Numbered from the stretch's first letter, positions 138 to 45,496 are shown. The stretch: 64,000 nt of DNA from Ignavibacteriota bacterium (GCA_963736195.1 CAVTNP010000004.1:1229153-1293152), one strand, 5' to 3'. Translations and numbers: made by a program. The notes: generated from the sequence alone by a model not told the origin.

Positions 138-1046
138 TTATGCGTTACGTAAAATTTTATTTTCAGCTATCGAGAACACCGCAATGATAAAAAACAGCAC
201 ATACGCCACTGCGCAGGCATAGCCCATAGTATCCGCAGATTCAAATGCGTTAGAATAGACCTGATAGACGAGCGTAGTCGTGCGTCCCAGCGGACCGCCG
301 CGCGTCATCACATATATTTCTGTAAACACCTGGAAGCTTTTGATCGTGTTCAGTACCAGCGCAAACAGCAGCGTAGGCCGGATGAGTGGAAGCGTTACCG
401 TAAAAAACTGTTTCCACTTCGGTGTTCCTTCGAGTTCTGCGACTTCGTAATAATCTTTCGATACTCCTTGCATCGCAGCAAGAAACAGCACGGCGTAATA
501 TCCGATCGAGATCCAGATATCCATCGCCATGATCGCTGGCAACGCAAGCCCCGGCTCCAACAGCCAGCCGCGCGCAGGCGCTCCAAAACCCGCCATCGTT
601 AACAGAGAATTAATATAGCCGCCGGAGCCATACAAATTCGTGAAAATGAGCGCAATAACCACAAGGGACGTAACGCTCGGTAAAAAAAGTGCGGATCGGT
701 AAAAATGTTGGAATCGCTCGACCCGTACTAATAGAGCTGCAAACAATAGCGCAAAGATCATCGTAAACGGAATTGTCCCGATCACAAATATTCCGGTATT
801 CAACAATGCCTGCCAAAAGATGGGATCGTGCGCCAATTTTATGTAGTTCCCGAACCCGATCCACACTGTTCGATTCGTCAGCGTGTAATACTTCGTGAAA
901 GAAAGATACAGCGCATAGATCAGCGGATACCCCCAGAATAGCACCAGCGTAATAACCCACGGCGCAAGCAGCAACCAGGTTTCGACGCTCCCCCTCCTAA
1001 AGAAGGAGGGGGAAGGAGGGTGGTTAGGTGTGATAGACATTGCCAC
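138..1046 (-). CDS. Carbohydrate-type ABC transporter permease (MalF/UgpA-like, binding-protein-dependent inner membrane component)
   Basis: 302 aa, multiple TM helices. Permease signature region is TLPLIRPTLLFALVLNTIKSFQVFTEIYVMTRGGP. The ORF starts with GTG at 1046; an ATG lies at 1040. The first ~20 codons are encoded by a GC-rich palindromic element. Confidence 0.8.
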   Translation of the reverse strand: MAMSITPNHPPSPSFFRRGSVETWLLLAPWVITLVLFWGYPLIYALYLSFTKYYTLTNRTVWIGFGNYIKLAHDPIFWQALLNTGIFVIGTIPFTMIFALLFAALLVRVERFQHFYRSALFLPSVTSLVVIALIFTNLYGSGGYINSLLTMAGFGAPARGWLLEPGLALPAIMAMDIWISIGYYAVLFLAAMQGVSKDYYEVAELEGTPKWKQFFTVTLPLIRPTLLFALVLNTIKSFQVFTEIYVMTRGGPLGRTTTLVYQVYSNAFESADTMGYACAVAYVLFFIIAVFSIAENKILRNA

Positions 1047-1075
1047 CCCCTTCCCCCTCCCTCTTTAGGATGGGG
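990..1075. repeat. GC-rich palindromic element copy A (CCCCTCC-loop-GGAGGGG hairpin arms, ~30 bp imperfect inverted repeat around the loop TTAGGTGTGATAGACATTG)
   Basis: Seen directly. Left arm cccctcctaaagaaggagggggaaggagggtgg is the near reverse-complement of right arm ccacccccttccccctccctctttaggatgggg. It shares an ordered set of blocks with the element at 1846-1965. Confidence 0.7.
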
Positions 1076-1722
1076 TGAAAGAATAGATCCGGCGCGAATG
1101 ATTTCAACGCCAGGTACAAACTGCACAGTGGCAAACCTACTACATTATAATAATCGCCATCGATGCGCTCGACGAACACCGCGCCGAAATCTTCCTGAAT
1201 GCCATACGCGCCTGCTTTATCCATCGGTGAACCTGTTGCGATATAGTCCTGAATTTCGTTTATTTCAAGTTTGCGAAAGGTCACGTCCGTTGCTTCGACA
1301 AAGGAGAGTTCCTGCTTCGTTTGGATGTCATATAAAGCGACTCCGGTATAGACCGTATGCGTCCTGCCGCTTAACGCAAGCAGCATGCGCTCGGCATCCT
1401 CCGCATCGACTGGCTTTTCGAGCATCGTGCCAGCGATCCAAACCGTTGTATCAGCGCCAAGCACTATTCCTGGCGCGCCGCTTAATTCCTCTGAAACGCT
1501 CAACTGCTCTGCCACGCTCAACTGCTCGGCCACGCTCAACTGCTCGGCAACGCTCTGTGCTTTATGCCTCGCCAGCCGCTCGACATTTTCTGCAGGTCCC
1601 TGCGCAGGATCCATCACCTCATGCAGGTTCGCCGGACGAATGTTAATCCGCTTTACCCCAAGCAGCTTCACGAGCGAAGCCCGACGTGGCGATTGCGATG
1701 CAAGAAAAAGAGTGCGCAGCAT
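1024..1722 (-). CDS. maf: Maf-like nucleoside triphosphate pyrophosphatase / septum formation protein
   Basis: MLRTLFLASQSPRR...LGADTTV...YGIQ...NVVGLP are Maf family hallmarks. The ORF-track start at 1788 is probably too far upstream; the internal Met at 1722 gives a canonical Maf N-terminus. The gene carries an in-frame (SVAEQL)x3 tandem repeat, and its 3' end reads through a palindromic element. Confidence 0.8.
   Translation of the reverse strand: MLRTLFLASQSPRRASLVKLLGVKRINIRPANLHEVMDPAQGPAENVERLARHKAQSVAEQLSVAEQLSVAEQLSVSEELSGAPGIVLGADTTVWIAGTMLEKPVDAEDAERMLLALSGRTHTVYTGVALYDIQTKQELSFVEATDVTFRKLEINEIQDYIATGSPMDKAGAYGIQEDFGAVFVERIDGDYYNVVGLPLCSLYLALKSFAPDLFFHPILKREGEGGGNVYHT
1497..1550. 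repeat. 18-nt in-frame tandem repeat x3 inside maf (encodes SVAEQL x3)
   Basis: gctcaactgctctgccac / gctcaactgctcggccac / gctcaactgctcggcaac in direct tandem. Confidence 0.85.
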
Positions 1723-1845
1723 TATTCTGCAAAAATACGCTTCTTCTTGCACGGTCTGGCTGAAATGCCCGTCGCGGTGGATTAGCATACATCTGGCACA
1801 GCAAGAGCCAATCGCATAAATCCCTCAATAATATCGAGTTCACTG

Positions 1846-8984: not shown

Positions 8985-9356
8985 TTGCCATCGAACATGC
9001 CGACCTACGAATACCGCTGCAAGTTCTGCCATCAAGTATCTGACGCATTCCAACGCATGTCGGATGCCCCACTCCTTAAATGCGCCCATTGTGGCAAGGA
9101 CGGGCTGGAGCGCGTGGTCTCCGGTGGCGCGGGCGTCATCTACAAAGGTGAGGGATGGTACGTAACCGACTACTCCAAAAAGTCCTCTGGTGGCAGGGAA
9201 ACGGAAGGCAAGTCTCAAACCAAGTCTGATGCTTCTAAGCCTGATGCAGCTAAGCCTGATGCAGCTAAGCTTAACAGCCCTAAGCCAGATACCCCAAAAA
9301 CCGAAACTACATCCGCCGAGACAAAGTTCGACCGACCCTATTTCCAAATGAAATAG
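8985..9356 (+). CDS. FmdB-family zinc-ribbon protein with low-complexity Lys/Pro/Asp/Ala-rich tail
   Basis: MPTYEYRCKFCHQVSDAFQRMSDAPLLKCAHCGKDGLERVVS has two CxxC pairs and the MPxYEYxC start. The tail carries the 15-nt tandem repeat gcagctaagcctgat (KPDAAKPDAAK). Confidence 0.6.
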   Translation: MPSNMPTYEYRCKFCHQVSDAFQRMSDAPLLKCAHCGKDGLERVVSGGAGVIYKGEGWYVTDYSKKSSGGRETEGKSQTKSDASKPDAAKPDAAKLNSPKPDTPKTETTSAETKFDRPYFQMK

Positions 9357-13629: not shown

Positions 13630-15231
13630 CTACCGATCCAAGATAAATGTTCCTTGAGATGGGAACGGCCCACGAAGGCGATAGTCACCAAGCATATACT
13701 CATCCACGAAGGTGTAGCGTGCGTTCAATCCGGTGTATTGCCAGATTTCATAGGGCTTTTGCATCGCTTCCATAGGATGGCTATCGATTAGGTCCGGCTG
13801 GCCGAGTGCAATATACACCCGGCCTCGGTCAGTCTTCCATCCAGGTTGATAACTGGAACCGAAATGAGCATTTGCGTAAGCGACGCGCGTGTAGAATACT
13901 TCCATTGGCCGATTTACGTCCTGCGCCGATGATTGTGATCCGTTTGCTGACATGAACTTTCGATTCCAAAACGCGATGATCGCACTACGCTTCTGTTTTG
14001 GGGTACGCGCAGCTAGAAGTGAGTCCTCCTCGGTGGGATCAGCGATAAACCGCAATTGCTCAATTGCTTGATCGAGGTCTTTTGCAGTTTGCGGAATTCC
14101 TCTGGCAATGCGAGCCTGGATGTTTCGATCCACTTTGAGCATAGCTCGGCCATCGAGAGCCGCAGGATCGGTCAGGGTTGTATCGGCAACAGAGGGAAGG
14201 ATATACATGCGTACGGTATAATGGCTCTGCCAAAGTTCATCAAATCGTAGTGGGATCAGAAGCGGCATTTCAGGAATCATTGTTGGTGCCGTCATGCCAA
14301 CCGAGCCGGCGTGGACGGTTCTGAACGTTGAAGAAGATTTCTCGATCACAATCGATTGCTTGGATGCTTCCTCATCGGTCGGTTGTTCCTTCTGCATGAT
14401 TTCAGCTACCACTCCAAGTGTTGAATCGGCAGGCAGATCATACAACTCCGCAAACAAACCCGCATCATGGTTGATACTTCCATCCTGGATGGCACCAGTC
14501 TCGACTATTTCTCCGCCCATTTCAGTGCCGCCGGCGCTTTCAGCCCATTCCGACACATCGGAACCGATCGCCGGAATGATTCTCATACCCTTTCGATCGC
14601 GATAGATCAGAAGATCGCTTACAGAAGTTGTATTCGGCGGGAAGCTCCTTAAAATAAAGGTGACCGTTGTATCAAAATCGCGCCGCGATGACAGATCGTG
14701 TACGTTGAGGCTCATTTCTAATTTTCTGGACGGATATTCACCTCCAGGCAACATCTGAAATGAGATTTGTTCCGCATCTGCTCGCATCGCCGACTTCATC
14801 GCGGGCGATGAAGCATTCATCGTGGGCGATGAAGATGAGGATGCGAACGCTCCGTGCGAAACGCGCGCCTTATGCTCGTCCAATGTTTCGAGCACATTAT
14901 ACGATTCATATCGATCGATCAGAATGCGTTCGCCATCGCGAATGGTGATTCGCACAGCATAATCTGCCACATACTTATCAACCGCATACAGAAACTCTAA
15001 TGAAGCATAGGGCACAGCGATGTAAAGATCCATTCGAGTGCTATCGAAGGTTTTTCCGGAGTCTTCGAAACTGGATCCTTTGAACGCCAGCAGATCGAAC
15101 ATTGCGCGCGGCACTTTAGCTGTCAATTCTTCGCTTCGGAATTCAGATGGCATTCTTCTTTGTGCGATCAGAGATGCCGCATTGCACAAAAAGAGAACTG
15201 CAAGGAATATGCTGAGGAGCCTGCGGGTCAT
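13630..15231 (-). CDS. GWxTD domain-containing secreted protein
   Basis: Signal peptide MTRRLLSIFLAVLFLCNAASLIAQ (Met at 15231). The C-terminal motif GWKTDRGRVYIALGQPD matches the GWxTD family signature. It contains an in-frame palindromic-repeat insertion (SSSSPTMNASSPAMKS). Confidence 0.65.
   Translation of the reverse strand: MTRRLLSIFLAVLFLCNAASLIAQRRMPSEFRSEELTAKVPRAMFDLLAFKGSSFEDSGKTFDSTRMDLYIAVPYASLEFLYAVDKYVADYAVRITIRDGERILIDRYESYNVLETLDEHKARVSHGAFASSSSSPTMNASSPAMKSAMRADAEQISFQMLPGGEYPSRKLEMSLNVHDLSSRRDFDTTVTFILRSFPPNTTSVSDLLIYRDRKGMRIIPAIGSDVSEWAESAGGTEMGGEIVETGAIQDGSINHDAGLFAELYDLPADSTLGVVAEIMQKEQPTDEEASKQSIVIEKSSSTFRTVHAGSVGMTAPTMIPEMPLLIPLRFDELWQSHYTVRMYILPSVADTTLTDPAALDGRAMLKVDRNIQARIARGIPQTAKDLDQAIEQLRFIADPTEEDSLLAARTPKQKRSAIIAFWNRKFMSANGSQSSAQDVNRPMEVFYTRVAYANAHFGSSYQPGWKTDRGRVYIALGQPDLIDSHPMEAMQKPYEIWQYTGLNARYTFVDEYMLGDYRLRGPFPSQGTFILDR
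14786..14836. repeat. Palindromic 18-mer family copies (TTCATCG-N4-CGATGAA) inside GWxTD gene
   Basis: cttcatcgcgggcgatgaagca ttcatcgtgggcgatgaaga. Translated on the minus strand as SSPTMNASSPAMK. Confidence 0.8.
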
Positions 15232-15235
15232 CGCT

Positions 15236-16804
15236 TCAGATAAGCACAGCTTCGGCACATAGCTCATCGTTCTCGACGCCTGTGAAGCGAGCTCCGATCA
15301 TCTCTCCGAGCGCAAGCTCCCTGTTAGACCTTACGCGAACTTCGCCATCGACTTCCGGCGCCTGTGTGGCGGTGCGACCGTAATAGACTCCGCGATCATC
15401 AAGGTCTTTACGTTCGATCAATATTTTGTCTATGGAACCAAGCTTCGTCGCAGATTCTACCTTTAAGAGATTCTTCGCAAGAAATATCTCCGCCTGAATA
15501 TCATACAGACGCGCTTGCCGACGGCGCTTCTCCTCTGCCGGCACCGGATCGCCCAGCGGATGCGCCGTCGTGCCATCCTCTTGACTGTACGTAAAAACAC
15601 CGAGATGGTCAAACTGCATTTGCTCTACGAATTCCTCCAGTTCCTCAAATTCGCGATCGCCCTCTGCAGGATAGCCTGTGATCAGCGTCGTGCGCAGAGC
15701 AATACCAGGAACGCGATCGCGAATTGTGCCGATCAGTTCTTCGGTGGCCCGGCGGGTAATGCCGCGGCGCATCGATTTCAACACAGCAGTCGATGCATGC
15801 TGTACCGGTATATCCAAATACGGAACGATCTTTTCCTCGCTCGCCATGACATCCAGCAGATCGAGTGGGAATTGTGCCGGATACGCGTACATCAGGCGTA
15901 TCCATTCGACGCCCTTTACTTTTGCCAATCTCGAAGCAAGCTTTGCGATACTTCGTTCGCCATAAAGGTCGAGACCATAGTTGGTGGAGTCCTGCGCTAT
16001 GAGAACGATCTCTTTCACGCCCCTCATCGTCGGCGATGAGGTCATCGTCGGCGATGAAATCGTCGGCGATGAGTTTGATGCGAGCATCATGGCCTCGAAT
16101 TCCAGCTCTTCGATGCTACGCGAACGATGGCTGCCGCGCATGATAGGGATAGCACAAAACGAACACGGATGGTCACAGCCTTCCGAGATCTTCAAGTATG
16201 CATAATGGTGCGGCGTCGAAAGCTTCCGCTCCAAAAGTAACGAGTCGTGGGAACCGCAATGCATCGCCGACGATGCTTCGTTACTCGTTACTCGTCCACT
16301 CGTTACTTGTTGGAGTATTTGTTCGAAGTCCTGCGTGCCGAAATAGCGATCCACGACGGGCCCAGCGTTTGCGCTGAACTCCGCCTCCAACTCACTGCGA
16401 TAACGTTCCGATAGACATCCAGCCACATAGACGTTTTTTACAACGCCAGCTTTTTTCAGTTCCAGAGCTTCTAAGATCGCGCTGATGGATTCTTTTTTTG
16501 CATGGTCGATGAATCCGCACGTGTTGATGATCACCGTCTCTGCCGGTGATGCATCCGTTTCCTGGGTGATCTCATCGCTGACGATCTCATCGCTGACGAT
16601 CTCATCGCCGACGATCTCATCGCTGACGATGAAGCCACGCCGCGTAAGCATACCGGCGATCACTTCGGAATCCACCGTGTTCTTCTCACAGCCTAACGAA
16701 ACCACGCAGACCTTGCCTAACGCCCTTGGGCGGTCGTTAATGGCCATCGTGGGGTCTTTAGGCGCCGTCACTGGCAGCGTAGAGTTTGTTGCGCTTATCT
16801 TCAT
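15236..16804 (-). CDS. rimO: Ribosomal protein S12 methylthiotransferase RimO (radical SAM MTTase), carrying three in-frame low-complexity insertions
   Basis: VVSLGCEKNTVDSEVIAGML...INTCGFIDHAKKESI is the MTTase N-domain. The radical SAM core is ISEGCDHPCSFCAIP. A C-terminal TRAM-like region follows. Inserts are VSDEIVGDEIVSDEIVSDEI, VTSGRVTSNEASSAMH and SSPTISSPTMTSSPTM, about 80 extra residues relative to a canonical ~440 aa RimO. Confidence 0.8.
   Translation of the reverse strand: MKISATNSTLPVTAPKDPTMAINDRPRALGKVCVVSLGCEKNTVDSEVIAGMLTRRGFIVSDEIVGDEIVSDEIVSDEITQETDASPAETVIINTCGFIDHAKKESISAILEALELKKAGVVKNVYVAGCLSERYRSELEAEFSANAGPVVDRYFGTQDFEQILQQVTSGRVTSNEASSAMHCGSHDSLLLERKLSTPHHYAYLKISEGCDHPCSFCAIPIMRGSHRSRSIEELEFEAMMLASNSSPTISSPTMTSSPTMRGVKEIVLIAQDSTNYGLDLYGERSIAKLASRLAKVKGVEWIRLMYAYPAQFPLDLLDVMASEEKIVPYLDIPVQHASTAVLKSMRRGITRRATEELIGTIRDRVPGIALRTTLITGYPAEGDREFEELEEFVEQMQFDHLGVFTYSQEDGTTAHPLGDPVPAEEKRRRQARLYDIQAEIFLAKNLLKVESATKLGSIDKILIERKDLDDRGVYYGRTATQAPEVDGEVRVRSNRELALGEMIGARFTGVENDELCAEAVLI
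16020..16080. repeat. Palindromic 18-mer family copies inside rimO (site 1)
   Basis: ctcatcgtcggcgatgag gtcatcgtcggcgatgaa atcgtcggcgatgag. Translated SSPTISSPTMTSSPTM. Confidence 0.8.
16255..16310. repeat. Palindrome gcatcgccgacgatgc plus tandem cgttactcg repeats inside rimO (site 2)
   Basis: gcatcgccgacgatgc ttcgttactcgttactcgtccactcgttact. Translated VTSGRVTSNEASSAMH. Confidence 0.7.
16553..16633. repeat. 15-nt tandem repeat x5 of the palindromic family inside rimO (site 3)
   Basis: gatctcatcgctgac repeated in tandem (catcgctgacgatg is a near-palindrome). Translated IVSDE/IVGDE x5. Confidence 0.85.
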
Positions 16805-16929
16805 GGATGCTCTAACACTGCCGCATACGCTCCGTTCCTATTCCTGCGCGAGCTAATTTGTCCTTTTTTGCCTTTCGATAGATTTTCGGAGGTATATTGT
16901 ATTCATATTATTAATCGTCCCATTAGCCT

Positions 16930-19236
16930 ATGTTGCATCGAAGACTTTTTAGAGACACACGGGGGATCTTTATAGCCGCCGCGCTTTTCGCGCTCATCCT
17001 GCCCGACAAGCTCAGGTCTCAAAATGGGGTCGTGATCAACGAGATAATGTATGCGCCTAAAAGTCCTGAGCCAGAATGGATCGAACTTTTCAACACAGAT
17101 AGTATTGCCATTGACCTGACCAATTGGGAAATTGCAACGGCCTCCAAATCGGGAGTTCTTCCTGACATTACGATAGCTGCTGGAGGTTACCTCGTTATTA
17201 CCAAGGATTCGCTTGAATTAATCACACTCCGGCCCGGGAATTATGCTCCATCGTCGGCGATGGAACTCTCGCAAATCGCGTTGCCGGATCTTGACAATAT
17301 CGGCTCAGAAGTCATACTTCGAAATGCAGCACTTCAAACAATTGATAGCTTAGCCTACCTTCCTTCGTGGGGTGGTTCGACGGGCAGTTCACTCGAAAGG
17401 CGAAATGCGCTTACATCGGCAACTGTCGTAAGCAATTGGGGCACATCCAAAGCAGCGACAGGGGCAACGCCCGGCGTCCGCAACAGTCTTGCTGGGCCAG
17501 ACTCCACACCGGTCATTATTGCTCGGCACCCGCTTGATATAGTTCTGAACGAGGTCATGTTTGCTCCGGTCAGCCCTGAGCCAGAATGGATCGAACTGCT
17601 AAACACGACCCTTGATACGATCAATATAGCAGGGTGGATTCTTTCCGTGCAAGGACACCCGTCCGTTACAATTCCAGCGACAAATACCGTTGTTCCTCCT
17701 GATTCTCTGATCGTCATTTCCGGCAATGATACTGAACTGGCTGCCATTCGAAAGGTGGACATTCAGCGCATCGTTCGTATCAACTTACCTGATCTGAGCA
17801 ATAGTGGCTCGACGCTTGCGCTCCACGATCCAGCCGGGAATTTTATAGACAGTTCCTATTATGAAGGGAACTGGATCAAGGCCGATGGCTTTTCGATCGA
17901 ACGCATCGATCCATACGTCATTGGTTACGAATCCTCGAATTGGAGTACCTGCAAGGATACGAGCGGCTCGACAATTCTTCGCCCAAATTCCGTCCGCATA
18001 CGGAACTATGATCTCGCAGTGACAGATGTTAGCGTATCCGACACGTCTGCTACGGTTACGATCGTCAACATGGGCCTTGATACGATCCATCGCACCGAGG
18101 TTGGTCTTCAAATAGGCTTAGCATCGTCGGTCTCATCGCCGGCGATGCAGGTGCAGTTCACTCCAGTCATTCAGCAATTATCACCCGGTCTTGCAAGTCG
18201 TGACTCTATGCGGGTTTTTTTCGATGTTCCGCAAAACCTCTATGGCCTATTTCCTGCAACGGCCTATATTTTGGATTCTTTAGATGAGAATCCCTTGAAC
18301 GATACGCTTCGGTTTAGTATTGCGCCACTCATCCCGGAAGATAGCCTGGTTATCAATGAGATCATGTTCGATCCGCAGCCAAACGGTTGTGAATGGATCG
18401 AGCTGTATAACCTTTCGGATAAGTGGATTTCGATGGATTCGACGCGGCTACTCACCGGAGAATCACGTCCGGGCGAATATACGCATGTGATCCCACCACT
18501 GTTGATAGCACCCGATTCATTCGGAATTGTCACCGCTAACGATTCCATTTACTCCATCTACCCAGCGTTGGCTGGGCGGAATAGCATAGCGTCCGTTGGC
18601 GCATCTTCGCTCGATCTTGGCAAAGATTCCAGCTCCGTCGTTTTTCAAGCTCTGGATTCTTCCACAATTGATTCCGTTCTCTATCTTAAAACATGGCAGC
18701 AAAGTATTCTTAAAAAGACGTTCGTGGGAATTTCTCTGGAGCGCAAGAACCCGCGCGGCGGGAGCAATGATCCACAAAACTGGCAGGCATCGCTGGATAG
18801 CGCTACCCCACTGGCGCAAAACTCCGTCGATACATCTTCAACAGCAACAACGCCTCCGCTCGGAACCTTATTTACCGCAAGCTTTTCACCGAATCCATTT
18901 TCGCCGGATGGGGATGGCTTTCAAGATCTTAGCATACTCACGGTCCAAACTGGGAATAGCAGCCAATGGGCTATGCAGGTGCAGATATTCGATGCGGGCG
19001 GAAGAATGGTGCGCTCGCTGGTAAATGCGGTATCGGTCTATCAAACCGCAACAGTAACATTCGATGGAAAACGCGATAACGGTCAACCGCTTCCGCTGGG
19101 ATTGTACACAGCTTTAATCCAGCTTACGTCTGCATCGTCGGCTATGAAATCTTCATCGTCGGCTATGAACGCAAGTCCCGAACAGAGCATGAGGCAAGAG
19201 ACGGGCATCGCGATCGCAGGCAAGCGTGCCCACTAA
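16930..19236 (+). CDS. Secreted lamin-tail-domain (LTD) repeat protein with T9SS type B-like C-terminal domain
   Basis: Three LTD cores: VVINEIMYAPKSPEPEWIELFNT, VLNEVMFAPVSPEPEWIELLNT and LVINEIMFDPQPNGCEWIELYN. The C-terminal FSPNPFSPDGDGFQD resembles the FSPNGDGxND type B sorting motif. In-frame palindromic-repeat insertions give SSVSSPAMQ and SASSAMKSSSSAMNASP. Confidence 0.7.
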   Translation: MLHRRLFRDTRGIFIAAALFALILPDKLRSQNGVVINEIMYAPKSPEPEWIELFNTDSIAIDLTNWEIATASKSGVLPDITIAAGGYLVITKDSLELITLRPGNYAPSSAMELSQIALPDLDNIGSEVILRNAALQTIDSLAYLPSWGGSTGSSLERRNALTSATVVSNWGTSKAATGATPGVRNSLAGPDSTPVIIARHPLDIVLNEVMFAPVSPEPEWIELLNTTLDTINIAGWILSVQGHPSVTIPATNTVVPPDSLIVISGNDTELAAIRKVDIQRIVRINLPDLSNSGSTLALHDPAGNFIDSSYYEGNWIKADGFSIERIDPYVIGYESSNWSTCKDTSGSTILRPNSVRIRNYDLAVTDVSVSDTSATVTIVNMGLDTIHRTEVGLQIGLASSVSSPAMQVQFTPVIQQLSPGLASRDSMRVFFDVPQNLYGLFPATAYILDSLDENPLNDTLRFSIAPLIPEDSLVINEIMFDPQPNGCEWIELYNLSDKWISMDSTRLLTGESRPGEYTHVIPPLLIAPDSFGIVTANDSIYSIYPALAGRNSIASVGASSLDLGKDSSSVVFQALDSSTIDSVLYLKTWQQSILKKTFVGISLERKNPRGGSNDPQNWQASLDSATPLAQNSVDTSSTATTPPLGTLFTASFSPNPFSPDGDGFQDLSILTVQTGNSSQWAMQVQIFDAGGRMVRSLVNAVSVYQTATVTFDGKRDNGQPLPLGLYTALIQLTSASSAMKSSSSAMNASPEQSMRQETGIAIAGKRAH
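18121..18150. repeat. Palindromic family copy inside LTD gene (site 1)
   Basis: gcatcgtcggtctcatcgccggcgatgcagg. Translated ASSVSSPAMQ. Confidence 0.6.
19131..19172. repeat. Palindromic family copies inside LTD gene (site 2)
   Basis: gcatcgtcggctatgaaatcttcatcgtcggctatgaacgc. Translated SASSAMKSSSSAMNA. Confidence 0.6.
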
Positions 19237-19254
19237 GAAAGGAGCCGTGCTTCT

Positions 19255-19316
19255 TCACTTAAAAGGATGCCGGTGAGCATCGATGCCGGTAAGCATCAAT
19301 GCTGGTGCATCGGCAC
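19255..19316. repeat. Intergenic degenerate copies of the CATCG...CGATG palindrome family
   Basis: gatgccggtgagcatcgatgccggtaagcatcaatgctggtgcatcggcacgg. Direct repeats of gcatcRatgccggt units are immediately upstream of the bidirectional terminator. Confidence 0.6.
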
Positions 19317-19321
19317 GGATA

Positions 19322-19357
19322 AACCCTTTATAGGAATTGAGAAGCCTATAAAGGGTT
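19322..19357. terminator. Bidirectional rho-independent terminator hairpin between convergent genes
   Basis: Perfect 13-bp stem aaccctttatagg / cctataaagggtt with a 10-nt loop. It is flanked by A/T on both sides, between the + gene ending at 19236 and the - gene ending at 19362. Confidence 0.7.
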
Positions 19358-19361
19358 AGGA

Positions 19362-22300
19362 TCACTTAGCAAGGATAACGCGCTCAGAGCATACCATCCC
19401 ACCACCCTGAAGCCGGATGAAATAAGTGCCCTGCTGCAACCCATGAGCATCGAGGATGATACGATAGGTGCCCTGGCTGAGTGCAGCATCGACGAGTGTT
19501 CGGACGTTTTGTCCGAGTGCGTTAAAGAGCTCCATCTTCACGTTCATCGTGGGCGATGAACCATTCATCGTGGGCGATGAAGCGTTCATCGTGTTGGAAG
19601 CATTCCCGCTGCTGCTCACAGTTGTCGAGTTAATCGTTGGCGATGAAGCGTTCATCGTGGGCGATGCAGCATTCATCGTTGGCGATGCAGGAACTGTATA
19701 TTGGATGAGGGTGGTGCCGTTGAAGGGGTTAGGGATAGCAGGAGCAATGGAAAGGATCTGCGGTTTGGTACCATTGCCAACGATTGTTGCACAGGAATCC
19801 ATGAAGATAACCCTTCCACCATTGAGAAGGCCGGCAGGCGCAGGCAGCGTAATGGAGTAATTGGTATCGCCGTTGGCATCAATGCCATCGGAGACGATGG
19901 GCATCCCGACGACGTCGTTGCCTCCATTATACAAGACCTGCTCGCCGCAAGGATCGGTTAGGACGTTGATATCGGCCTCCTGCACACCGACACTCTTCGC
20001 GGCCTGGAACAGCAGATATCCAATGGTGTCGTGCAGTTGCAGATCGGTCAAGGCTGGGCCTTGTCCACTGATGGTGTACGTTCTGTTCCCGTCGTTAGCA
20101 TCAGAGATATTCCACCCGGCAGCGACATTGGTGCCGGCGGGGTTTACATTGGCGGTTCCGGTAAAGGTCAGGAGGTTACTTCCGGTGATTTGGAAGGTAA
20201 ACTGGAACTGATTGAGATTCTTTTTGCTAAGTGGGAACGCATCGGTGGAATCGAGATAAATGGGAACCTGGAATGCGGCATTAGAAGAGTCGATGCCGGT
20301 TGCATTCATGGCCAAGTTTTGGCGATAGATAGCGATGGGCAGGGTATCGGTATGGAGCGCCTGCACGGATGTGTCAGTGGATTGCCTTCCCCAAACATCG
20401 GACGCTAATAGGGTTCCGGTCGCGGAGGTTTTTGGATCGATCAAACCGAGATCAAACGTAAGAGAAATGGCAGGTGAATCTATTCTGGAATAGTTGGACA
20501 GGTTTTGGGTGAGCGTATCCCAGACGCGATAGATACCCCGGTCATGCCTTCGCAGATCGGTGACCGTAACGGCGATGGAATCGCAGACTATTGAATCGTA
20601 TTTGAGATCGACAAAAGCCGGAGTGGAATCGATCGGGAGGTAATAGGTCCAGCAGAAGGTATCGCCGGCGCAAAGCTCATTTCCGGCGCCATCGACGGCT
20701 TGCCAGCAGATCTTTGCCGGGAGCGTATCGTGCGCAAGGGTATCGGTTACGAACAAGATCACGCTGTCGAATTTGGTGTAGCGCGGGAGTCCTACGCCTG
20801 GGAACGTATCTTCCTTGATGGTATGAATGGAGCTAATGGTACCGTGGTACAGCATGGAATAATTATGGACGTTTGAGAACCAGATCGAGTCAATGCCGTC
20901 GTCATAATTGATACTATCGTGAATATCGGAAAAGAAAACCTTGATGGTGCCGGAAGAGTCTAAGACATAGATAGTGTCATGCGGGCAAAACGTATCTGCG
21001 AGACTATCCTTCACGACTCTTTGCTGATTATTAAAGTTACCCGCACAATCCCATGCTTGGAGCGTAAAACCTGCACTCGCAAACGTATCCCTGATCTGAA
21101 TTCGGAACAAGAATGTAGCTGCGCAGTTAGGTATGGGGCGAAGGCTGCACGTTGTATCGTTAATGCTGTCGATCAAATACAGCGAAGGGTTCGCAATGGG
21201 CCAGCAATTCTGGATCCTCGAGACCAGCACGGAATCCACTCCAGTATCCCAGGGCCTGTCGTCGGTAGCGGAGACGGACCATCCACCTGTCTGTGTCTGG
21301 ACAACCACGAGCGGCGGAACAGTATCGGGGATCGAGCAATAACGGATAGTGTCATACGTCGGAACATTACCAGCAGAATCGATCGCTTCAATAATGATAT
21401 TCCCGCCAAGCGACGACATAGAATCGGTGACGCAAACCGTAAACGTATCCTCTTTCATCCCAAGCGTGAGAGGATGCAACTGCGTGAAATTCATATTCGA
21501 AGAATCGACCACAATGACGGAGCGAAGCCCACCATCGTGCTGAAGACCGGGGAGCGGCTCCTCAATCGAATCCGTAATTACCCATTCACTGCACTGGAAT
21601 TCACATGGCGCTCCCGAAGTATCCGTGTAATTCTGATCATATCGTTTCAGGAGCCGGAAACGAGGCGGAAGCGTATCGAATGGCACCGGAGGCGAACAAC
21701 TTTGAAAGCAGAATGTGTCGTAGCTAACGTTGGCCGCGCAATCCGTGAATGTGAAATAGACGCAGGAAGAAAGCAGGGAATCGACTTGCGTCACAGTTAC
21801 CTTGACGCTATCGGTGTGGTCGCATTGCGGGTAAGTCGCAATGGTAACTTTATCGGCATTCGGAGGAACCACCTTCCATGTGATGGAATCTATGCCCTGA
21901 TCAATCGCTCGGCTATCATAAACGGAATCGACGAATGTCGTATAATTCCCACAATGATTGGTCGCTCCAACGCCGACATGCTTCGTATGGCGTGGGGCTA
22001 AAAGATCCCTTTGCTGACAATCCACGATGATCGGGCAAATATATGGGCTCGAGCTACAGGTGGTAGGACCAACCCCATTTGCACCAACGGAAAACGCAAT
22101 ATCATATATTGAATCGGTGGAGCAATTCGTGAGAACACTCTGAAGAACCGTATCTTCCCATGTAATAGAAGCTGAGCTTTGTCCAAGAATCGAGCCTAAC
22201 CCTCCTGCGCCTGTAAGCTTGTGGTTCTGTGTACTTACGAGAGCAGGCGGAGGATTGGGAGACTCGATCATCACGGGGAGATTTGTGGAAGCGCCCGTGG

Positions 22301-23513
22301 CATCGTTGGTGATCGTCTGTGTACCATTCGCGCTCGTCGCAGTGAGAGTATTGAGATTCCAGACAATTCCATCGACGGGAAAATGGTTGGGAACATAAGT
22401 CGAAAGGGTTGGATCCCAAAAAACATGGTCCGGATGAACCAGCATCGCGTCCAGGTTACCGAAGCAAATGGGCTGGCAAGCCGCGCTGCCATAGCTAAAG
22501 CTTCCCAGCACTACGGTTTGTCCCTGATTGGCGCCGCTATTCGGCCATTGAATAAGCAGGGCCTCATCTCCGATAGTTGGGTATTGCGTTCCCTTATTTG
22601 GCGAGCCAAAAGTGTATCCAGTTACTATTTCTCTCCAATCGGTGTATGCAAATAGCGAAGGCTGCATGAGTCCCATTGGTTCTGGCGCAAGGCTGTCATT
22701 CAAATATCCCTCGGCGATAAGCCCTGGAAAGACCTCGCCGGGGACATCGTTATTCAGATCCTGCAACGTCGCAATAAAATACGGCGGAATGGAATTAGCC
22801 GGTGGATCCTCAGCCCATTGTGTGCTCCAGTACCCATACCGTGTGGTAATAGGTGCATTATCATTTGAAGGAGGTGGATTGCCACCCGTAGAAAGATCGA
22901 CGTCCAGAAGGTATTGTGCCTGAGCCGACAAAAACCCGTTCTCGTGACTGATCAGTTTGAACTTGAGCACTATTTGCCCTGTACCAGAAATTGGATAACC
23001 GGTGGCAAATTCGACGGGATACACATCCTGAATGATGTCAAAACCATTCGGACCCTCTGGCTGCCAGTCCGTCTCGATCGTATCCCCGATCTTGCGCGTA
23101 ACACCGTTGTTCAGGAACGATGGATATACCGGTGAGGCCGAAGAACTCAGGCGCGAAACATTATTGGTAAAATAAGTTCCATTCACGAGGACGGTCAGGA
23201 ACGACGTTTGAGCCGGAAAAACGATCGCATCGTTGTGGCTCGCCGGCGTGGTGTTGAGAAAAATTGAAACCAATCCATCGGTGCTCGAAACATCGGCCTC
23301 GACGTAGGCATTGCTCGTCACGAAGGTCGATTGCGCGCGCGCAGTCGTGGAAAAGGTCAGAAGTGCCATCGCAAGTGGTAGGCACAGCAAGCCGAACCGG
23401 CGGAGGGGCCACCGTTGGGTGGCTCGGTCACTCAGAAAAAGGAAGAATAACTTTAGAAGCATTAGAGGTGGAACGAGAGGAGCCTTGGAAACTCCGAACG
23501 TCGATTGGATCAT
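19362..23513 (-). CDS. Giant secreted surface protein (~1380 aa) with T9SS type A C-terminal sorting domain interrupted by a repeat insertion
   Basis: Signal peptide MALLTFSTTARAQ, so the true start is probably 23369-23513. The C-terminus PNPFNGTTLIQYTVP[ASPTMNAASPTMNASSPTINSTTVSSSGNASNTMNASSPTMNGSSPTMN]VKMELFNALGQNVRTLV...GTYFIRLQGGGMVCSERVILAK is a T9SS CTD with a ~50 aa insert between its first two beta-strands. Confidence 0.6.
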   Translation of the reverse strand: MIQSTFGVSKAPLVPPLMLLKLFFLFLSDRATQRWPLRRFGLLCLPLAMALLTFSTTARAQSTFVTSNAYVEADVSSTDGLVSIFLNTTPASHNDAIVFPAQTSFLTVLVNGTYFTNNVSRLSSSASPVYPSFLNNGVTRKIGDTIETDWQPEGPNGFDIIQDVYPVEFATGYPISGTGQIVLKFKLISHENGFLSAQAQYLLDVDLSTGGNPPPSNDNAPITTRYGYWSTQWAEDPPANSIPPYFIATLQDLNNDVPGEVFPGLIAEGYLNDSLAPEPMGLMQPSLFAYTDWREIVTGYTFGSPNKGTQYPTIGDEALLIQWPNSGANQGQTVVLGSFSYGSAACQPICFGNLDAMLVHPDHVFWDPTLSTYVPNHFPVDGIVWNLNTLTATSANGTQTITNDATGASTNLPVMIESPNPPPALVSTQNHKLTGAGGLGSILGQSSASITWEDTVLQSVLTNCSTDSIYDIAFSVGANGVGPTTCSSSPYICPIIVDCQQRDLLAPRHTKHVGVGATNHCGNYTTFVDSVYDSRAIDQGIDSITWKVVPPNADKVTIATYPQCDHTDSVKVTVTQVDSLLSSCVYFTFTDCAANVSYDTFCFQSCSPPVPFDTLPPRFRLLKRYDQNYTDTSGAPCEFQCSEWVITDSIEEPLPGLQHDGGLRSVIVVDSSNMNFTQLHPLTLGMKEDTFTVCVTDSMSSLGGNIIIEAIDSAGNVPTYDTIRYCSIPDTVPPLVVVQTQTGGWSVSATDDRPWDTGVDSVLVSRIQNCWPIANPSLYLIDSINDTTCSLRPIPNCAATFLFRIQIRDTFASAGFTLQAWDCAGNFNNQQRVVKDSLADTFCPHDTIYVLDSSGTIKVFFSDIHDSINYDDGIDSIWFSNVHNYSMLYHGTISSIHTIKEDTFPGVGLPRYTKFDSVILFVTDTLAHDTLPAKICWQAVDGAGNELCAGDTFCWTYYLPIDSTPAFVDLKYDSIVCDSIAVTVTDLRRHDRGIYRVWDTLTQNLSNYSRIDSPAISLTFDLGLIDPKTSATGTLLASDVWGRQSTDTSVQALHTDTLPIAIYRQNLAMNATGIDSSNAAFQVPIYLDSTDAFPLSKKNLNQFQFTFQITGSNLLTFTGTANVNPAGTNVAAGWNISDANDGNRTYTISGQGPALTDLQLHDTIGYLLFQAAKSVGVQEADINVLTDPCGEQVLYNGGNDVVGMPIVSDGIDANGDTNYSITLPAPAGLLNGGRVIFMDSCATIVGNGTKPQILSIAPAIPNPFNGTTLIQYTVPASPTMNAASPTMNASSPTINSTTVSSSGNASNTMNASSPTMNGSSPTMNVKMELFNALGQNVRTLVDAALSQGTYRIILDAHGLQQGTYFIRLQGGGMVCSERVILAK
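19538..19690. repeat. Array of ~6 palindromic 18-mers (ttcatcgtgggcgatgaa) inside the T9SS CTD of the giant gene
   Basis: Perfect copies are at 19543-19560 and 19564-19581. Variants (ttcatcgtgttggaag, aatcgttggcgatgaa, ttcatcgtgggcgatgca, ttcatcgttggcgatgca) run through 19689. Each arm TTCATCG / CGATGAA is a perfect 7-bp inverted repeat around a 4-nt spacer. Confidence 0.9.
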
Positions 23514-44488: not shown

Positions 44489-45496
44489 TTATTCCTTCAC
44501 CAATTTAACGGATTGCGCTTCACCATACGCGGTTTGGATGCGCGCGAAGTACGTGCCCGAGGGCAGCCCTGCCAGCGAAAGCGGAACCGATTTATTCCCC
44601 GGCTCGAACAATCCTTCAAACCCGGACCCCGGACCCGGACCCCGGTTCCCGGAACCCGAAACAAGATGCCCCAACACATCGAATAGTTCTATTTTCACAT
44701 ACGCCTCTTTGCTGATGCCAAACGATATTACCGTTCCCTCGCCCGAGGGGTTGGGATACGCGGCGGCGTTGGAGATAATGCCCGGCTGTGGCGTTTCGCT
44801 CACGCTCTCATATAGAAGATGCTTTGCAAGTAGCGTGTCGAGGCCAAGACCAAGCGAAGCGATGGATGGTATGGTGGTATCGAGCGGCACCGACGTGTCA
44901 TTTAGCCAGTCTTCGTATTGAGATGCCCTGGCTCCTTTTATCTCATTTTCTATAAATGGCGTATCGCAGGTAGTGTTCTGAACTAACCATTCATCTATTG
45001 CAAGGGCTTTATTCAGATTAATCCAACCCTGCTCTTCACCACCGGTATCATTCGGGTCGGCAACCTGCATCGCTTCAACACACGCACAGAAGTATTCTGG
45101 GTTCGTCGTATTGAGATAGAGCACCGATTCGAGCCATAGCTGGGCCTGTAGCCAAAGAGAAGTGTCTGACACCTCAAGTGTTTGACGGCTGGCACTGAAC
45201 TCCTGAAACATGGATGGTGCGAAATAATCATTATAGCAAGTTTCGATAAATTTCATGGTTGTATCGTAACATTGCTGCACCTGTCCCGGGCCAGTATAGT
45301 TCCATATCTTAAAGCGCAAGGAATCGCAAGACTCTGTGTCATCTAAGACTTTCCCCATCTCTTCCTCTACCGCCGAGAGATTCCCGCGACCATGGTGTGC
45401 CGGCGCGTTGCCAATCCCTTGCGACTGCGCGAACGAGGAACCGCTCTGCTGCATCAGCAAGAGAAGAAGGGCTATCGTTCTTAATTGATGTACCAT
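44489..45496 (-). CDS. Secreted protein with T9SS C-terminal sorting domain (tandem paralog 1)
   Basis: Signal MVHQLRTIALLLLLMQQSGSSFAQ. The C-terminal ~110 aa AYPNPSGEGTVISFGISKEAYVKIELFDVLGH...SGTYFARIQTAYGEAQSVKLVKE is nearly identical to the 45553-46683 product. It carries an extra SGNRGPGPGSG low-complexity insert. Confidence 0.6.
   Translation of the reverse strand: MVHQLRTIALLLLLMQQSGSSFAQSQGIGNAPAHHGRGNLSAVEEEMGKVLDDTESCDSLRFKIWNYTGPGQVQQCYDTTMKFIETCYNDYFAPSMFQEFSASRQTLEVSDTSLWLQAQLWLESVLYLNTTNPEYFCACVEAMQVADPNDTGGEEQGWINLNKALAIDEWLVQNTTCDTPFIENEIKGARASQYEDWLNDTSVPLDTTIPSIASLGLGLDTLLAKHLLYESVSETPQPGIISNAAAYPNPSGEGTVISFGISKEAYVKIELFDVLGHLVSGSGNRGPGPGSGFEGLFEPGNKSVPLSLAGLPSGTYFARIQTAYGEAQSVKLVKE

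Follow-up and report, generated by a model that had tools for sequence, protein, structure and literature searches.

The closest described counterparts of the repeat family considered here, a small palindromic unit inserted in frame into four adjacent genes of a 64,000-nucleotide stretch of DNA from an Ignavibacteriota bacterium (GCA_963736195.1 CAVTNP010000004.1:1229153-1293152), are the small dispersed repeats (SDRs) of heterocystous cyanobacteria and the Rickettsia palindromic elements (RPEs). The whole 64-kb stretch is called the window below; it represents ~4% of the source genome, and its nearest homologs carry the names Candidatus Kapabacteria or Ignavibacteriota. SDRs, reportedly described by Elhai et al. 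in 2008 (Genome Res 18:1484; cited in PMC3116915), are said to be ~21-27 nt long, genome-wide and mostly intergenic. As far as their reported features go, they resemble the present family in being very small palindrome-containing insertions without an encoded transposase, found in genes and in other repeats. However, the copies described here are mostly intragenic, bound to one locus and even smaller, whereas SDRs are dispersed and mostly intergenic. MITEs and Correia-like elements have terminal inverted repeats round an internal segment, 100-400 bp in all, and a target-site duplication. Unlike these, the whole unit here consists of a 7-bp stem and a 4-nt centre.

RPEs, in the summary of Ogata et al. 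2000 given in PMC3184786, are ~105-146 bp long and dispersed round the genome. By that description they share with the present family a palindromic repeat placed in frame in unrelated genes, including housekeeping enzymes, a tolerated surface or linker peptide, and lineage specificity. The same description sets the two apart, since the unit here is 18 nt long, forms tandem arrays and occupies a single 6-14 kb neighbourhood. REP sequences are extragenic, 20-40 nt long, RAYT-linked and present in hundreds of dispersed copies with a conserved GTAG/CGTC head (PMC3116915, PMC3733652). REPs and REPINs are likewise short hairpin-forming palindromes in many, sometimes clustered, copies, but the true copies of the window all lie inside open reading frames (ORFs), and the unit has neither conserved bases outside the stem nor a GTAG/CGTC head; no RAYT (Y1 transposase) is found among the 48 ORFs of the window.

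Other comparisons concern mechanism or function. Template switching at quasi-palindromes is an established replication error mechanism (PMC7202029) and a cause of point-mutation hotspots in E. coli reporters (PMC7202029, PMC6357072). It copies one arm from the other, which matches the in-place compensatory changes and the stem extension into third-codon positions reported below, but it is not known to generate a self-perpetuating insertion family in several genes. Chromosomal parS motifs cluster in the origin region (PMC5703909). Like parS clusters and plasmid iteron centromeres, the locus has many 16-18-bp palindromes within a few kb, often in coding sequence, and is itself conserved while its sites turn over. 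Unlike them, it has no canonical parS or par genes nearby, carries 0-20 copies, and gains sites by insertion and slippage, not by substitution. PARCEL sequences are also intragenic tandem repeats with dyad-symmetric DNA, but there a 25-residue repeat domain forms the bulk of dedicated ORFs subject to horizontal gene transfer, in contrast to 6-aa inserts in conserved enzymes. HIP1 is a genome-wide over-represented palindrome that arises by substitution, at ~one per gene (PMC5861425). A HIP1-like palindrome was rejected here because none occurs in the 59 kb outside the cluster and because the copies add length relative to orthologs. We found no report in the literature of such elements in Kapabacteria.

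The palindromic unit

The exact sequence TTCATCGNNNNCGATGAA (pattern TTCATCG-N4-CGATGAA) has 4 matches in the window against 0.00 expected. With up to two mismatches there are 14 against 0.59 expected, all within 14,795-19,689, and the shorter core CATCG-N4-CGATG matches 13 times, always within 14,797-19,886. A fuzzy scan with a loop constraint returns 19-20 true copies, all of them within ORFs and in the interval 14,797-19,690; the rest of the window (~59 kb) gives background-level two-mismatch matches only (shuffle mean 5.2). Other repeated hairpin families were sought across the 64 kb and none was found, so that the genome is not generally prone to them.

The host genes encode a GWxTD-domain protein (13630-15267, minus strand), the ribosomal protein S12 methylthiotransferase RimO (15236-16804, minus; 522 aa), a secreted protein that combines a lamin-tail domain (LTD) with a FlgD_ig/CHU_C tail (16930-19236, plus), and a 1383-aa cargo protein of the type IX secretion system (T9SS; 19362-23513, minus) in which copies are present at the 3' end only. 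Copies are either solitary or arranged in arrays.

Alignment of 65 copies from the window and its relatives defines the unit as an 18-nt near-palindrome with 7-bp arms and a 4-nt centre. The ten positions of CATCG and CGATG are invariant or nearly so, as are the inner 14 nt overall, which follow the pattern CATCG-[T/C][C/G/T]GG-CGATG. When orientations are matched the centre is almost always T[C/G]GG and is thus asymmetric and conserved. The outer two pairs vary, yet they co-vary (TT/AA, CT/AG, CC/GG, GC/GC). The pair next to the core is G:C in 29 copies, T:A in 24, C:G in 4 and unpaired in 7, and its covariation score is reached by 0 of 500 shuffles; the second outer pair shows weaker covariation, and there is no conservation further out. 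Taking the unit as 18 nt matches the usual size of a solitary insertion, namely 6 codons. One copy, at 18134-18147, is a perfect palindrome (CATCGCCGGCGATG). It may be speculated that the usual centres, TCGG and CCGA, are the products expected from C-to-T deamination of a CCGG centre on either strand.

The intragenic copies of the window all keep the reading frame and give the peptides SSPTM(N), SS(S)AM, SSPAM and IV(S/G)DE. The register TCA TCG CCS ACG ATG encodes SSPTM, the reverse orientation SS(S)AM, and the +2 register IV(G/S)DE. The third register (CAT CGY CGR CGA TGA) ends in a stop and is unused within genes. It provides the natural stop of the LTD gene in two relatives (AHRRR*), and GC-flanked units, which lack the TGA, are read internally as HRRRC. 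Inside genes, only in-frame copies without an internal stop survive. The periods of arrays within genes are 15, 18, 21 or 30, whereas periods of 16 or 17 are met only in non-coding sequence, that is in the window spacer at 19266-19307 and in the relative L153, in a run that overlaps the LTD stop as well.

These data confirm the palindrome family that the original prediction had read from the sequence, including the frame of every intragenic copy, and they agree with its view that the common denominator is DNA rather than protein, a unit of 14-18 nt being read in differing frames and orientations. Several details have to be amended. There are four host genes instead of at least five. The copies claimed between genes reduce to a degenerate 16-nt repeat with half-sites only (19266-19307), and next to the tandem arrays that had been noticed stand three solitary copies (16259, 17247 and 18132). 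Perfect palindromy over 18 nt had been proposed; near-invariance extends over the inner 14 nt, while the outer two pairs vary, though in concert. Finally, the two strands do not yield the same type of peptide, as had been supposed, since the asymmetric loop T[C/G]GG gives SSPTM or SSSAM according to orientation.

Arrays fold far better than shuffled sequences, both as single-stranded DNA and as RNA (z ~ -4.1), and in arrays of period 21 the junction between adjacent copies is also a hairpin (CGATGAA-GCA-TTCATCG). Together with the stem covariation and the location of nearly all copies in transcribed sequence, this could mean that hairpins are selected at the RNA level, for mRNA stability, processing, or transcriptional or translational pausing in the gene cluster. 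We regard this as very unlikely. The copies lie in either orientation relative to the mRNA, with differing loops, in genes on both strands and also in a convergent intergenic spacer; neither their positions nor their numbers are conserved between orthologs; the element has no Rfam match; and an explanation in terms of DNA accounts for the covariation just as well.

Confinement to one gene neighbourhood

The rimO neighbourhoods of eight relatives were compared (L140, L141, L142, L144, L148, L149, L150 and L099), with RimO proteins 70-76% identical to that of the window over aligned positions and 63-69% by BLASTP. In those that bear the element, the copies lie in one syntenic block (OmpA/PD40, outer membrane protein barrel, T9SS cargo, LTD / RimO, GWxTD, glycerate kinase), within whose genes their positions vary from genome to genome. 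Exact cores were counted in 11 sequences, the window and ten related loci, which comprise ~247 kb of clade DNA and sample only part of each genome: 47 fall in 97 kb of the block and 1 in 150 kb outside (binomial p = 3e-18), the latter 73 bp upstream of the OmpA gene. All 12 exact cores of the window are within the 14-kb neighbourhood. Counted as outside are, among others, 50 kb of the window and two 22-kb control loci, which come from the metagenomes of L140/L141 and of L148 and have no true copies. Copy number in the clade ranges from ~20 in the window down to 0-1 exact cores in L149 and L150. A simple single-locus slippage model, a variable-number tandem repeat, was rejected: arrays exist, but the unit is present in 4 genes of the window (up to 7 in relatives) and in solitary copies.

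The same picture emerges from proteins. Of the best 120 RimO homologs, 13 of the top 36 (roughly at least 60% identity; the clade orthologs) have element peptides, at no fewer than 10 positions, against 0 of the 84 more distant ones. As control we took a PorZ-like T9SS protein whose gene lies 5 kb away from the cluster; its 20 clade orthologs, of 752-779 aa, are all devoid of element peptides, and other window proteins with T9SS sorting domains are free of copies too. Tolerance of the host proteins therefore does not explain the clustering. Beside the PorZ-like control gene of one relative (L152:13996-18315) is a restriction-modification-like set, with N6_N4 methyltransferase and DpnII/MboI-like domains, that is unrelated to the element.

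Broader searches yielded little. The 56-aa array peptide shares words with 16 clusters in a word-indexed collection of 5.8 billion proteins, none of them scoring, and HMMER against 1.84 billion representatives returned 3 unrelated eukaryote-like repeats and no comparable array. There was no BLASTN match of the array to plasmids and phages, and a viral-sequence scan gave 3 single matches. A scan of genome contigs for CATCGN4CGATG-N{1,10}-CATCGN4CGATG (at least 120 matches, filled by chance matches in high-GC genomes) uncovered L099 and L024, the latter another metagenome-assembled genome (MAG) with one copy pair at an unrelated locus. A stricter tandem pattern in metagenomes gave 19 loci, almost all unrelated repeats. 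Two of them, in contigs SDBS/SDBV of an unrelated organism (L131:161-265 and L128:4473-4515), show an analogous 21-nt palindromic in-frame array, TCATCGCTTCCGATGAAGCTC, with the peptide ALIASDE; judged from its translation, the ORF that bears it resembles one for the alpha subunit of DNA polymerase III (DnaE/PHP). The similar arms and other loop suggest that the phenomenon recurs elsewhere.

It might be argued that the family is a selfish mini-element similar to RPEs, SDRs or REPs, present genome-wide and moved in trans by an enzyme encoded at another site, and that the RimO neighbourhood is one of many regions it has colonised. In-frame insertion in both orientations, a separate flank subfamily in each genome (TT/AA vs AG/CT), as from master-copy bursts, and the L024 pair all agree with this proposal, and very small mobile palindromic repeats are reportedly present in cyanobacteria, the SDRs attributed above to Elhai et al. 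2008. It is nevertheless quite improbable, given that 47 of the 48 exact cores lie in one neighbourhood with none in the outer 50 kb of the window or the 44 kb of control loci, that the peptides are in 0/20 PorZ-like but 13/36 RimO orthologs, that databases of such size contain so few word-sharing clusters and no comparable array, and that no conserved flanking tag or target duplication accompanies the unit. The L024 pair shows that rare escapes from the neighbourhood do occur.

Insertion and turnover

Alignment with orthologs, the check that had been proposed for the original prediction, identifies the copies as discrete lineage-specific insertions, usually of 18 nt. The other 35 clade RimO orthologs measure 433-478 aa. 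The element-encoded stretches of the window protein fall in gaps of these orthologs and of the T. maritima structure 4JC0, and its catalytic motifs are all intact. LTD orthologs show clean 6-codon presence or absence at four sites (PSSAME, SSPTML, PSSAMD, ASPTMLG), and ortholog alignments of GWxTD and T9SS cargo proteins give an insertion pattern like that of RimO and LTD. Insertions are placed in loops, interdomain linkers and N- or C-termini. When filled and empty sites are compared, no target-site duplication is seen, and the flanks past the second outer pair lack both conservation and direct duplication; for the window, whose nearest available relative has ~69% RimO identity (BLASTP), the comparison is at codon level only.

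Each genome has a dominant flank type, TTCATCG..CGATGAA in the window, L140, L144 and L153 and AGCATCG..CGATGCT in L142, L099 and L148, a sign that the copies of a genome evolve in concert. Genomes also have some sites in common: LTD 'TPSSAM[D/G]G' in L142 and L148, GWxTD 'PSIVGDA', and the T9SS site immediately ahead of the sorting domain, where the window has 7 copies and L099 has 1. The outer stem pair of the shared LTD site is T...A in L142 and C...G in L148, and its 5' base is the synonymous third position of a host Thr codon. The palindrome is thus kept in place by compensatory changes. Three more solitary insertions use the preceding third-codon base of the host as their outermost stem base.

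L140 and L153, the sole close pair of genomes available, show 94% identity across 7.3 kb, and their alignment opens only 6 gaps. The LTD C-terminus has 1 copy in L153 and 2 in L140, and the LTD/T9SS spacer has 2 copies of period 17 in L153 and 3 perfect copies of period 30 in L140. The LTD stop is even drawn from different copies, as AHLHRPR* in L153 (L153:7300-7430) and AHRRR* in L140 (L140:7440-7640), and in L153 two units are seemingly nested in the loop of the stop-codon unit. Slippage has left signatures in the form of partial-arm duplications (TTCATCTTCATCG), truncated copies and the periods 15, 18, 21 and 30.

Other changes hint at templated copying. In L140 and L142 the LTD C-terminus AGKRR* (GCAGGAAAACGGCGCTGA) is swapped for an element of equal length, GCTCATCGYCGRCGATGA (AHRRR*), which looks like a conversion tract seeded on CGGCG.TGA. 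The LTD insertion at 18,120-18,156 of the window ends in ATGCAGGTGCAG, whose 12 nt recur unchanged in native LTD sequence at 18973-18984; the native ATGCAGGTGCAG lies ~830 nt downstream of the insertion and follows a native GGCTATG (W-A-M codons), with which both copies at the LTD C-terminus share their unusual CTATG arm. The flank of the RimO site A array has 15 nt in common with the SurA gene 5 kb away (chance ~0.03).

Between genomes, 4-fold degenerate sites of rimO are only 34-57% identical, yet the 14-nt core is identical throughout, orthologous sites included. Either selection acts on the core, therefore, or conserved templates keep regenerating it. Against an origin in ordinary low-complexity linkers, or in separate slippage repeats, that converged on similar codons stand the lack of synonymous variation, even at orthologous sites, and the fact that unrelated proteins read one unit of 14-18 nt in three frames and in either orientation. 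An artefact of assembly or polishing is also hard to credit, although several of the relatives are nanopore MAGs. Copies are present in independent JGI, ENA, NCBI and Logan short-read assemblies from differing samples; the GWxTD and LTD proteins, inserts included, have exact matches on record from Logan assemblies, though exact look-ups of the window's RimO returned no entry; and the locus of one relative was recovered in a second assembly at 99.98% identity. The Maf and Zn-ribbon genes of the same genome do contain other in-frame tandem repeats (see below), as convergence might predict, but the other tandem repeats of the window are non-palindromic and limited to single loci. The evidence across assemblies and across frames effectively refutes both convergence and artefact.

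In L141, a nanopore-polished contig (suffix np1212), the T9SS cargo gene is broken into many small ORFs (L141:1856-5256), which are probably due to frameshift errors and not to biology.

With regard to the original prediction, the region is hypervariable as it had proposed, at least for indels between relatives, and the element is tolerated in the form of linkers. Ancestral low-complexity segments with divergent DNA, which it had named as a finding that would overturn it, are not what the alignments contain. Genome-wide proliferation is not supported by the distribution of exact cores over the ~247 kb sampled, nor is membership of the RPE or Correia/MITE classes, in view of the 18-nt unit and the lack of terminal repeats, of target duplication and of a transposase in the window.

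Copies in the window

The GWxTD insert (14783..14833) consists of a truncated half-copy, GCATCGCCGAC, followed by 2 full copies of period 21. Its minus-strand reading is SSSSPTMNASSPAMKSAM, and all GWxTD orthologs lack the insert. RimO contains three insertion sites. Site D (16023..16075) has 3 copies with periods 18 and 15, reads SSPTISSPTMTSSPTM and corresponds to a gap in T. maritima RimO 4JC0 and in most orthologs. Site B (16259..16278) is a solitary copy in reversed orientation (TGCATCGCCGACGATGCT) that reads ASSAMH. Site A (16568..16635) has 4 copies of period 15 in the other register, IVSDEIVGDEIVSDEIVSDE, and amounts to a 21-aa insertion relative to orthologs.

In the LTD gene, a solitary perfect 18-nt unit, TCCATCGTCGGCGATGGA (17247..17264), reads PSSAME, and exactly these 6 codons are missing in orthologs. 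A 36-nt (12-aa) insertion, LASSVSSPAMQV (18120..18156), is made up of a truncated copy, a full copy that contains CATCGCCGGCGATG, a perfect palindrome of 14 nt, and finally the flank ATGCAGGTGCAG. At the C-terminus, 2 copies of the CTATG variant with period 21 (19131..19169) read SSAMKSSSSAMN. The spacer between the LTD and T9SS genes (19266..19307) has 2.6 repeats of the degenerate 16-nt sequence GATGCCGGTGAGCATC, whose period is not a multiple of 3. In the T9SS cargo gene, 2.4 copies of period 21 lie just upstream of the C-terminal sorting domain (19543..19593; SSPTMNGSSPTMN) and 3 more of the same period at 19630..19689 (ASPTMNAASPTMNASSPTIN). A further, probable diverged copy, GCCATCGGAGACGATGGG (PIVSDG), is found at 19884..19901 in an extra segment specific to the window; its atypical loop makes it a weaker call.

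A GGAAC-N17-GTTA motif 5' of rimO, in the segment 16805-16929, is conserved in L140, L141, L144 and L099 as well. It resembles a promoter of the extracytoplasmic function (ECF) sigma type, which would be unexpected for a housekeeping methylthiotransferase.

A model for local spread

We propose, at about even confidence, that the palindromes form a transposase-free family whose local spread is due to template switching or short-tract conversion and whose growth comes from slippage. The family would have been resident in one conserved neighbourhood of the Kapabacteria clade since before these genomes diverged. New copies would arise over kb distances when a nascent strand or repair intermediate ending in an arm switches to a nearby copy or to a sequence resembling a half-site, either by replication template switching or by gene conversion over short tracts; stalling at a hairpin, or its cleavage, may be the trigger. 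The arms would stay complementary through intrastrand (quasi-palindrome) template switching, which would also extend the stem into those third-codon positions of the host gene that are free to vary. Slippage between arms, which in arrays are direct repeats of one another, would yield the periods 15, 18, 21 and 30, and selection on the host proteins would remove every insertion that is not a multiple of 3 or that falls elsewhere than in a loop, linker or terminus. The window with its 48 ORFs yielded no transposase, no RAYT, no recombinase and no known RNA family.

Several observations weigh against this model. The invariant 14-nt core, with its asymmetric centre, across diverged genomes is its weak point, since a purely mutational family should drift; some sequence-specific constraint beyond the model is thus implied. 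Most simply, only the core sequence propagates efficiently, perhaps via a host factor. We infer template switching from its end products, and both flank matches described above are suggestive only as signs of templated copying. The long persistence of the founder at exactly one locus lies outside what the model explains. The L024 pair is located elsewhere, and a few further clusters in the source genome are possible.

The constancy of the core across deeply diverged genomes would be accounted for if the copies were cis-acting sites for a dimeric DNA-binding protein or a hairpin- or cruciform-binding protein, with a high local density under selection, as in a centromere or parS-like array, a site for loading or for organising the nucleoid, or a sink for a regulator. 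New sites would then be made by duplicating old ones into tolerant coding sequence. An operator-like near-palindrome of 18 bp, of which up to ~20 sites in 5 kb recall the clustering of parS in the origin region (PMC5703909), a locus that is conserved while individual positions turn over, and an LTD stop region turned into the motif without change of length are all in keeping with such a role. Although this is the main alternative to the model, we judge it unlikely. A fall in copy number from ~20 to 0-1 within one clade makes a dosage-dependent function doubtful, and the outer pairs co-vary within sites, with a compensatory change at an orthologous site, which fits a hairpin better than base-specific recognition. 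Moreover, arrays of period 15 contain truncated sites, and sites within a radical-SAM enzyme are costly. ParA, ParB, DnaA and DnaN domains are absent from the ORFs of the window and from the Pfam listings for the relatives' loci; the parS consensus TGTTNCACGTGAAACA has only chance-level matches with 3 mismatches in the window; and no DNA-binding gene conserved in the neighbourhood was found. Composition and skew of the window are uninformative as to origin or terminus, and the relatives' loci lie at inconsistent contig positions.

Other repeats in the window

Four further repeats were noted outside the cluster. In a Maf-like gene (1024-1788, minus strand), an 18-nt in-frame repeat present 3.4 times at 1495-1555 (AACGCTCAACTGCTCGGC, SVAEQL) is non-palindromic and unique in the window. 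The C-terminal tail of a Zn-ribbon protein (gene 8985-9356, plus) has 3.3 copies of a 15-nt in-frame repeat (KPDAA) at 9222-9270. The intergenic segment 46877-46980, upstream of the Lnt gene (47177), contains two AAAGATG heptamer arrays of 4.4 and 4.3 copies together with AAGATGAA units; the repeat unit of this segment includes GATGAA, a hexamer of the element arm. Lastly, a CCCGGAC heptamer occurs 5.6 times at 44620-44658 in the gene of a small T9SS-sorted protein (44489-45496, minus). Its period is not a multiple of 3, so a change in copy number would shift the frame of that gene.

Significance

The family is set apart by its 18-nt unit and by its strict and evolutionarily persistent confinement to one locus. 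It is tempting, if tentative, to see in it the smallest self-propagating DNA element described, an enzyme-free 18-nt palindrome with kb-limited mobility that has stayed bound to its locus across family-level divergence in Kapabacteria while writing linkers of 5-7 residues into an essential radical-SAM enzyme and its neighbours. In a variant of this idea the invariant core would mark a new protein-palindrome system, a non-canonical centromere-like or loading locus built of in-frame inserts. For annotation, the consequence is that the length outliers of RimO, LTD and GWxTD proteins in the clade reflect inserts and not errors of gene calling.

The system lends itself to experiment, with an invariant 14-nt core, self-correcting arms, turnover of copy number at 94% identity and a sharp spatial boundary. 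If the core is a protein-binding site, it would be a new chromosomal cis-element in an uncultured phylum. If the local-propagation model is true, the effects of template switching at short palindromes go beyond point mutations: the process would maintain an insertion family that is inherited and renews itself, and would supply conserved enzymes with linkers. There would then be a class of 'mobile' DNA without transposase that is invisible to standard annotation of repeats and mobile elements.

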